From assembly GCA_001938485.1 (NCBI GenBank), contig MQRK01233060.1, forward strand, positions 1 through 61,842: a stretch of DNA of 61,842 nucleotides. The letters run 5' to 3'. Both the position numbers and the translations under genes were made by a program. Below are positions 5,128 through 5,355 of this stretch, one piece after another; positions within the stretch are counted from its first letter, which is position 1; every line of letters begins with the position of its first letter. The stretch comes from Girardia tigrina. Taxonomy: Eukaryota. Below the pieces are notes generated by a model. That model saw only the letters and a list, made by a program, of their open reading frames with translations, made no database searches and had not been told where the DNA came from.

Positions 5128-5355
5128 GAAACTGAAATGCGTATAAAAAATGTTGCACTGAGATTAATTAATGAATTTAGATGTGATTATCTTGATGGCG
5201 AATACATTATTAGTTTGTTAAAGGAAATTGATACGTTTACAGTATCTGAAAGATTAATTCATTTAATTAAACCTTTGTTGGTAGCTCAGATACACAAAAA
5301 TACAAAATTTCGTTCTAACATTAGGGATCTTCTAAAGAAATTTTCGAAGTATCTT
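5128..5355 (+). pseudogene. LEDGF integrase-binding-domain / TFIIS-N-like helical bundle
   Basis: EMRIKNVALRLINEFRCDYLDGEYIISLLKEIDTFTVS...LLKKFSKYL aligns by eye without gaps over ~38 aa to the LEDGF IBD as I recall it ([38 protein letters not shown]...LYNKFKNMF). Confidence 0.5.

Follow-up and report, generated by a model that had tools for sequence, protein, structure and literature searches.

Does the retroelement at this locus carry its own version of the integrase-binding domain (IBD) of LEDGF? The original prediction was that a 76-residue helical segment of a retroelement Gag is a captured IBD, or more broadly a TFIIS-N-type domain (TND), which could bind an integrase or dock on the transcription machinery. 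We analyzed the whole stretch of DNA (61,842 nt, called the window below). The segment is where it had been placed, at 5128-5355 (plus strand, frame 1), inside a stop-to-stop frame at 4774-5487. This frame belongs to Gag, and it is covered by an intact database protein, P0001. The segment proved to be part of something that was overlooked at first reading: the second of two tandem units, each made of a helical domain and a ubiquitin-like domain (UBL). We put the probability that the second helical domain descends from a TND/IBD at about 0.7, a figure that combines several lines of evidence, no single one of which is significant.

The segment lies in the Gag of a decayed retroelement

The features of the locus are collected in Table 1. 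Judged by its motifs, the element is an env-bearing, gypsy-like LTR retrotransposon. It has a CCHC-knuckle Gag behind a PBS-like site, as in Gypsy/Metaviridae. The PBS-like motif, which we take to resemble a tRNA-Trp PBS, has a CA four bases ahead of it (3055-3056), and this CA may be the 5' LTR end. Neither a second LTR nor a second copy of the element was found within the 61,842-nt window. There were also no pol motifs in the window, except for one isolated YxDD-like match at 19601 that we judged to be chance.

Table 1. Features of the window and of the element that it contains
Feature	Position	Strand	Basis or remark
AT-rich base composition	whole window		2-kb windows mostly 20-31% G+C
Retroelement, LTR type, env-bearing, decayed	~3060-6550	+	
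PBS-like motif	3061-3073	+	sequence; starts TGG
gag frame, broken	3263-5666	+	tblastn with intact P0001: five pieces, 86-92% identity, three frames
gag frameshifts	near 3640-3660, 3860-3880, 5441-5475, and 5607	+	
gag in-frame stops	3753-3755 and 4771-4773	+	translations
Putative capsid region of Gag	3263-3857	+	position only
Nucleocapsid, three CCHC zinc knuckles	4105-4347	+	PF00098, three stretches, E 2.6e-10
Helical domain, unit 1 (diverged paralogue of unit 2)	4624-4863	+	holds the stop at 4771-4773
Ubiquitin-like domain 1 (UBL1)	4873-5097	+	PF00240, E 1.3e-5, at gathering score
Helical domain, unit 2 (IBD/TND-like bundle)	5113-5373	+	AlphaFold2 model, Foldseek, VIA-align, profile match 2mtn_A
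Ubiquitin/SUMO-like domain 2	5374-5610	+	split by a frameshift in the window copy
env-like frame, truncated	5836-6549	+	stop at 6319-6321

P0001 (799 aa, 95% identical, 7 member sequences; one of 381 candidates) holds the whole Gag in a single frame. From its position, the N-terminal part of Gag is probably the capsid region; Pfam and PDB searches with this part gave no match. The zinc knuckle region also matched retroviral nucleocapsid chains in the PDB (E 0.0009 to 0.07). For the ubiquitin/SUMO-like domain 2, the piece in the window matched PF11976 (E 0.0016) and PF00240 (E 0.011), and the domain in P0001 matched both families in two stretches each (E 1.4e-5 and E 2.7e-8, respectively). The env-like sequence starts about 200 bases past the end of the P0001 match. 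Its frame has a hydrophobic stretch, seen by hydropathy at 5914-5958, followed by the N terminus of a mononegavirus/chuvirus-type fusion glycoprotein (PF24664, Monjiviricetes_fusion; E 2.5e-16, profile positions 5-125 of 653). Between the two, at 5666-5860, the gag frame extends beyond P0001 by about 65 codons of acidic, low-complexity sequence, and it stops where the env-like frame starts in another frame.

The rest of the window has exons of an RCC1-repeat gene (9255-10019 and 14481-14843), a cadherin-repeat exon (26915-27880, plus strand), and an NPL4 exon (30036-30383, minus strand). It also has remnants of Tc1/mariner transposases (13465-13842, 19282-19536, 46170-46424, 55799-56119, and 60611-60985) and, at 743-1039, a remnant of DUF659 (E 7.6e-5), which is presumably a hAT-type transposase. 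These exons and DNA transposon remnants point to an intron-rich animal genome context. Two repeats were also seen: a tandem array of a 21-base G+C-rich unit at 1-209 and a long inverted-repeat pair at 43728-44434 and 45795-46510.

Gag ends in two tandem units, and unit 2 is conserved

A search of database representatives gave five proteins at E≤0.001, with P0002, P0003, and P0005 as relatives. A further search gave P0007 and P0008 (2 of 908), and a profile search that scored 8000 proteins returned four, all of them known already. Because these searches gave so few relatives, the Gag family within their reach is tiny. Left out of the homologue sets were P0004 (an unrelated repeat protein with a 50-residue match in the UBL region), P0006 (polyubiquitin-like, matching via the UBL), and P0008 (a 56-aa fragment with only the junction of unit 1 and UBL1). 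Of the relatives that were kept, P0002 has no unit 2 and P0003 is partial.

The C terminus of Gag consists of two tandem units, in each of which a helical domain runs directly into a UBL. In P0001, the whole units span about 452-612 and 616-782; below, unit 1 and unit 2 refer to their helical domains unless the whole unit is named. With about 85 residues, unit 2 is slightly longer than the segment that was first noticed. When the two whole units of P0001 were aligned, they matched almost without gaps over about 140 residues, and their score was reached by 0 of 5000 shuffles. For the helical parts alone, the match between unit 2 and unit 1 was much weaker (10, 65, 176, and 45 of 2000 shuffles), and unit 1 against P0005 gave 0 of 2000. 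P0005 aligned equally well to whole units 1 and 2 (blastp E 5e-14 and 2e-13 in a set of eight proteins). In the three unit types, the last helix and the UBL are 68, 70, and 70 residues apart. Only two leucines are invariant across all five helical units.

UBL cleavage as a processing signal requires a di-glycine. Both UBLs lack it at their C-terminal ends, and on that ground we rejected the idea that they are cleavable processing signals.

The prediction had treated conservation among element copies as decisive, and unit 2 is indeed kept: P0001 and P0007 are 63% identical over its 79 aligned residues, compared with 64% in UBL1 and 50% in the upstream linker. Unit 1 is 66% identical to its counterparts in P0002 and P0007. 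This Gag has a duplicated module, fused UBLs, and a conserved unit 2 domain. The duplication and the fused UBLs point to an accessory module that modulates the host.

P0005 (411 aa) consists of the end of a UBL, a helical unit, a full UBL, and then unassigned sequence, and no part of the protein had a Pfam match. By its sequence, it represents the module in a second, far-diverged lineage. Between P0001 and P0002, the best-conserved segment, above the folded domains, is residues 386-412 of P0001 (74% over 27 residues). It corresponds to about 4420-4500 in the window, where an amphipathic helix comes after a serine-rich, acidic stretch.

The unit 2 model resembles TNDs

We modeled unit 2 with AlphaFold2, using a five-row alignment of the helical units and no templates. 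The model was confident (pLDDT 90.1, pTM 0.77), and it bears out the helical nature that had been claimed for the segment. It is a four-helix bundle with helices at 2-23, 29-40, 46-60, and 64-86. Compared with the IBD, it is five residues short and has no separate alpha3. A proline is at model position 54, where alpha3 would end, and a model from such a shallow alignment may have merged two helices.

The model was compared with 350,542 PDB chains by Foldseek. All 15 of the rows listed through rank 16 were the LEDGF IBD, with 5n88_D counted as such from its residue numbering alone. Among the matches listed, the LEDGF IBD rows had E values of 0.16 to 1.2 and TMq of 0.44 to 0.70. The first non-TND row had a TMq of 0.32, and TFIIS domains appeared later, amid weak unrelated rows. 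The top of this list is what the prediction would lead one to expect, but none of the 350,542 chains matched at E≤0.001.

VIA-align was used in two ways. With the 167 chains from Foldseek, rows 1 to 21 were all TNDs, and a designed repeat protein came next (Z 9.2). The best of the 167 had a Z of 11.0 (rmsd 2.8, 85 aligned residues), and a Z of 10.6 was obtained at rmsd 1.8 with 78 aligned. Nine IBD chains and yeast TFIIS superposed on the model at rmsd 1.8 to 2.0 over 71 to 81 residues. With 48,161 representatives and without Foldseek, TNDs made up 10 of the best 50 rows (Z 8.4 to 10.6). They came from eight different proteins: LEDGF, HRP2, TFIIS from four species, Elongin A, and MED26.

The same search raises an alternative, which is that unit 2 is not a TND homologue. 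It would instead be two helical hairpins that form a small HEAT-like pair and have a different origin, and its likeness to the IBD would come from a common fold plus chance residues. HEAT/ARM pieces tied with TNDs at the top of the 48,161-chain search (Z 10.7, 10.7, and 10.5), and 49 of the 48,161 chains reached Z≥8, in a range (under Z ~13) where VIA-align warns that matches between helical bundles may reflect a common arrangement. Identity between unit 2 and TNDs is also just 10 to 20%. An Atlas feature search gave generic HEAT-like clusters, below its recognition threshold, and a second one gave no usable match. However, eight different TND proteins are among the best 50 of 48,161 representatives, and the boundaries of unit 2 are those of a complete IBD, not of a fragment of a long solenoid. 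Furthermore, sequence-only and structure-only alignments give the same N-terminal register and the same subfamily (see below). We consider an origin outside the TNDs rather unlikely, even though the sequence searches described next include some that favor it.

A viral structure library gave no match to the unit 2 model (best E 0.56). A BCL2 or death fold, an idea that came from Burro elements, was not among the structure-search matches listed.

A profile match to LEDGF agrees with the structural register

Pfam holds models for LEDGF and TFIIS-N/Med26. Neither family was found at E≤1 in the window or at E≤10 in the single relatives, in searches whose HMMER filters remove most matches with E values over 0.1. 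Therefore, significance at the profile level, which the prediction had looked to, did not materialize, and the absence of a Pfam match fits the non-TND origin discussed above. NCBIfam produced only two weak unrelated matches, both on P0007.

A profile made from three unit 2 sequences had a single PDB match at E≤10 among 177,635, and this was 2mtn_A (E 1.2). 2mtn_A is an MLL-LEDGF IBD fusion, and the alignment to it is ungapped over the N-terminal half. Unit 2 was included in eight PDB sequence searches, of which only this one found an IBD, and with similar profiles unrelated proteins had E values of 0.02 to 0.9. No IBD/TND was found by PDB searches with single proteins, with the five-unit profile, with a long profile, or with the unit 1/P0005 profile. 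The last of these had 27 PDB matches with no TND among them, which again favors a non-TND origin. TNFAIP8, Puf4, phosphoglycerate kinase, YbaB, and Vps28 appeared as weak rows for the helical part and were taken as chance. The N-terminal register of the 2mtn_A match is also the structural register (model residue 6 = LEDGF 347). Because its family and register agree with the structure searches, the E 1.2 match gains weight. The two lines of evidence are partly dependent, since Foldseek also scores residues and both began from the same few sequences.

The likeness to LEDGF was first noticed as a spaced pattern of IBD residues. The pattern is present, starting at segment residue 5, but in its exact form it occurred in none of five relatives (P0001, P0002, P0003, P0005, and P0007, of which P0002 lacks unit 2 and P0003 is partial). 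The leucine of its D-x-L-D part is peculiar to the window copy; P0001 has H there, and P0007 has C. Because the pattern was picked post hoc, its tiny per-position probability is not a valid test. A pattern search of bacterial and archaeal genomes gave 101 matches, and none was confirmed. The LLKKF that was said to end the segment is also present, but it is just ahead of the last four residues rather than terminal. What survives of the claimed IBD/TND likeness is the structure searches and one weak profile match in the same register, but not a match at E≤0.001 or a Pfam family.

Equivalents of IBD functional residues in unit 2

According to the available part of a TND review (PMC9987994), TNDs are five-helix bundles whose pad-like surface receives acidic TIM motifs in two pockets and at a basic patch. 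The first TIM pocket uses alpha3, and LEDGF-type TNDs require FxGF. Asp-366 of LEDGF is described as a residue without which integrase is not bound, whereas cellular partners do not depend on it (PMC3185499, in the portion available).

The window Asp at 5185 aligns to Asp-366. Its equivalent is Asp in all four unit 2 sequences (window, P0001, P0007, and P0003), Asn in both unit 1 sequences, and Ala in P0005. The equivalents of Ile-365 in unit 2 are C, C, L, and H. A loop of the Ile-365/Asp-366 type between helices 1 and 2 is present in unit 2 only.

The C-terminal half of unit 2 aligns to LEDGF in two differing registers. The sequence (HMMER) register reaches residue 408 with no net deletion. 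In it, the window Phe at 5308 is on Phe-406, and K/K/R at 5296/5305/5311 are on 402/405/407. P0001 and P0007 have the same residues, with only K/R exchanges. The basic patch of unit 2 is then H, K, K/R, R, and the Phe-406/Val-408 equivalents are F and S. The structural register puts L, L, A, Q at the basic patch (401/402/404/405) and I/V and K at the Phe-406/Val-408 positions. The basic/Phe set is missing from unit 1 and P0005 whichever register is used. How much retained function can be transferred from TNDs depends on which C-terminal register holds.

P0001 has no FxGF motif, the nearest being an acidic stretch that ends in GY (residues 210-216). It is part of an acidic Ser/Glu/Asp run in Gag that ends in Gly-Tyr (P0001 205-217, window 3877-3915), which has a loose resemblance to a TIM linker, although the leading Phe of FxGF is missing.

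The absence of a separate alpha3 from the model suggests another possibility, that unit 2 is derived from a TND but re-purposed. The fold would be kept, alpha3 and the TIM surface would be lost, and the domain would pack with its UBL into a structural unit or bind a partner outside transcription. The four-helix model with its five-residue shortfall, the constant spacing between the last helix and the UBL, and the mere two leucines that are invariant over five units are all consistent with this. However, Asp, Phe, and Lys/Arg are kept at IBD-equivalent places, in the sequence register, even though the copies are only about 61 to 65% identical. Also, the proline at model position 54 suggests that alpha3 was perhaps merged with another helix by the shallow model. 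We consider re-purposing quite unlikely.

A self-encoded integration cofactor, as first proposed, would be a unit 2 predicted to bind the element's own integrase, so that the integrase is packaged or, with the help of unit 1, linked to transcribed chromatin. The Asp-366 equivalent in 4/4 unit 2 sequences is what an integrase binder would keep, the sequence register also retains Phe-406 and basic residues, and a tandem pair of domains might in principle engage two partners. This is improbable, however: the Asp-366 position is N in unit 1 and A in P0005, the window has no pol motifs beyond the chance-like YxDD, P0001 has no PWWP or other chromatin reader among its seven Pfam families, and the described interaction is with lentiviral integrases, has no precedent outside lentiviruses, and would require a gypsy integrase to have acquired the pocket independently. 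Its most specific form, in which the Asp-366-type loop would let unit 2 grip the integrase and the tandem module would attach the preintegration complex to host elongation factors, is very improbable.

DISCUSSION

Descent of unit 2 from a TND/IBD probably explains the agreement between the structure searches and the 2mtn_A match. Descent specifically from a LEDGF/HDGF-type IBD has somewhat better than even odds. We propose that an env-bearing gypsy-like element captured a host TFIIS-N-type domain, most like a LEDGF/HDGF-related IBD, that this domain was joined to a ubiquitin-like domain, and that the pair was then duplicated at the Gag C terminus. Possible donors exist, because invertebrates have IBD-bearing host proteins that bind FxGF motifs, as described in the accessible text of PMC6877644, and these could have supplied the domain. 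The same text reports that Drosophila JASPer-JIL-1 promotes transposon expression.

The function that we tentatively favor for the captured IBD/TND, at a little less than even odds, is that of a putative host interaction module binding elongation/chromatin factors. Unit 2 would be a noncatalytic pad, putatively for the acidic TIM/FxGF motifs of these factors. The adjoining uncleaved UBL would be a second handle, for example toward the ubiquitin-proteasome system. The module might then recruit, sequester, or destabilize a host transcription factor, to the benefit of the element. Unit 1, which has drifted further, may have a different partner. The TND-UBL fusion is an architecture for which we found no match in any described protein, and it suggests a design in which a receptor is combined with a proteasome handle.

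The closest known counterparts of unit 2 in fold are the IBDs of LEDGF/p75 (PSIP1) and HRP2 and the LEDGF domain of Drosophila JASPer. The model predicts the same bundle topology (rmsd 1.8 over 78 residues). With the LEDGF/HRP2 IBD, it shares the N-terminal register, by sequence and by structure, and the Asp-366 equivalent. However, unit 2 is encoded in a retroelement Gag, has no PWWP, is duplicated, and is fused to a UBL; it is 16 to 19% identical to these domains, and its model lacks a separate alpha3. Because it has no match to the Pfam family and no PWWP, we have not classed the unit 2 protein as a LEDGF family member. Compared with the wider TND superfamily, unit 2 is of similar size and has structural matches at Z 8.7 to 10.6 (TFIIS, Elongin A, and MED26), but no similarity at the Pfam level (TFIIS, Elongin A, MED26, and IWS1).

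The element itself resembles the giant gypsy elements Burro/GYPSM1, with which it shares a three-CCHC Gag, a Ubi2/SUMO-like PF11976 domain, and a mononegavirus-like fusion glycoprotein after Gag, as far as the available text of PMC6431247 describes them. According to that text, the polyproteins of Burro, a planarian element, carry captured ubiquitin- and apoptosis-related domains. By analogy, capture of a domain as a host interaction module would fit an element with this Burro-like outline. Burro was compared by its description, not by its sequence, and the accessible part of that description names no TND/IBD (PMC6431247). However, the Gag here is about 800 aa with two UBLs, and P0001 has no Pfam match to MATH, BIR, ankyrin, or BCL2 domains. 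Because these matches are absent, the element is not classed as Burro. Chromoviruses are likewise retroelements with a captured host module of the chromatin type. According to the part of PMC3605345 that is available, theirs is on the integrase and reads chromatin, whereas the one here is on Gag and is a putative protein-protein pad.

An element-encoded IBD or TND is probably new. We found no report of one in the open literature searched. The available portion of the TND review lists only cellular TND carriers, with viruses as users of host TNDs, and it mentions viral TFIIS homologues but not a TND encoded by an element (PMC9987994). LEDGF, TFIIS, and ubiquitin are not mentioned in PMC13524379, and the accessible part of PMC8532177 has nothing on such domains.

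Domain capture by LTR elements is known already, from chromodomains and from the MATH, BIR, BCL2, and ubiquitin-like domains of Burro, and lentiviruses are known to hijack the IBD/TND of the host. If unit 2 does descend from an IBD/TND, this would be an unusual capture of the very type of host module that HIV integrase grips. It would also provide a small, foldable, and naturally duplicated domain with which to probe IBD-integrase recognition beyond lentiviruses, and it would raise the question of whether a transposon taps or disables the TND-TIM network of transcription elongation. Were the improbable integrase-cofactor explanation true, a gypsy-like element would have made its own a tethering step for which lentiviruses rely on the host, and this would suggest that the affinity between IBD and integrase is older or more general than lentiviruses.
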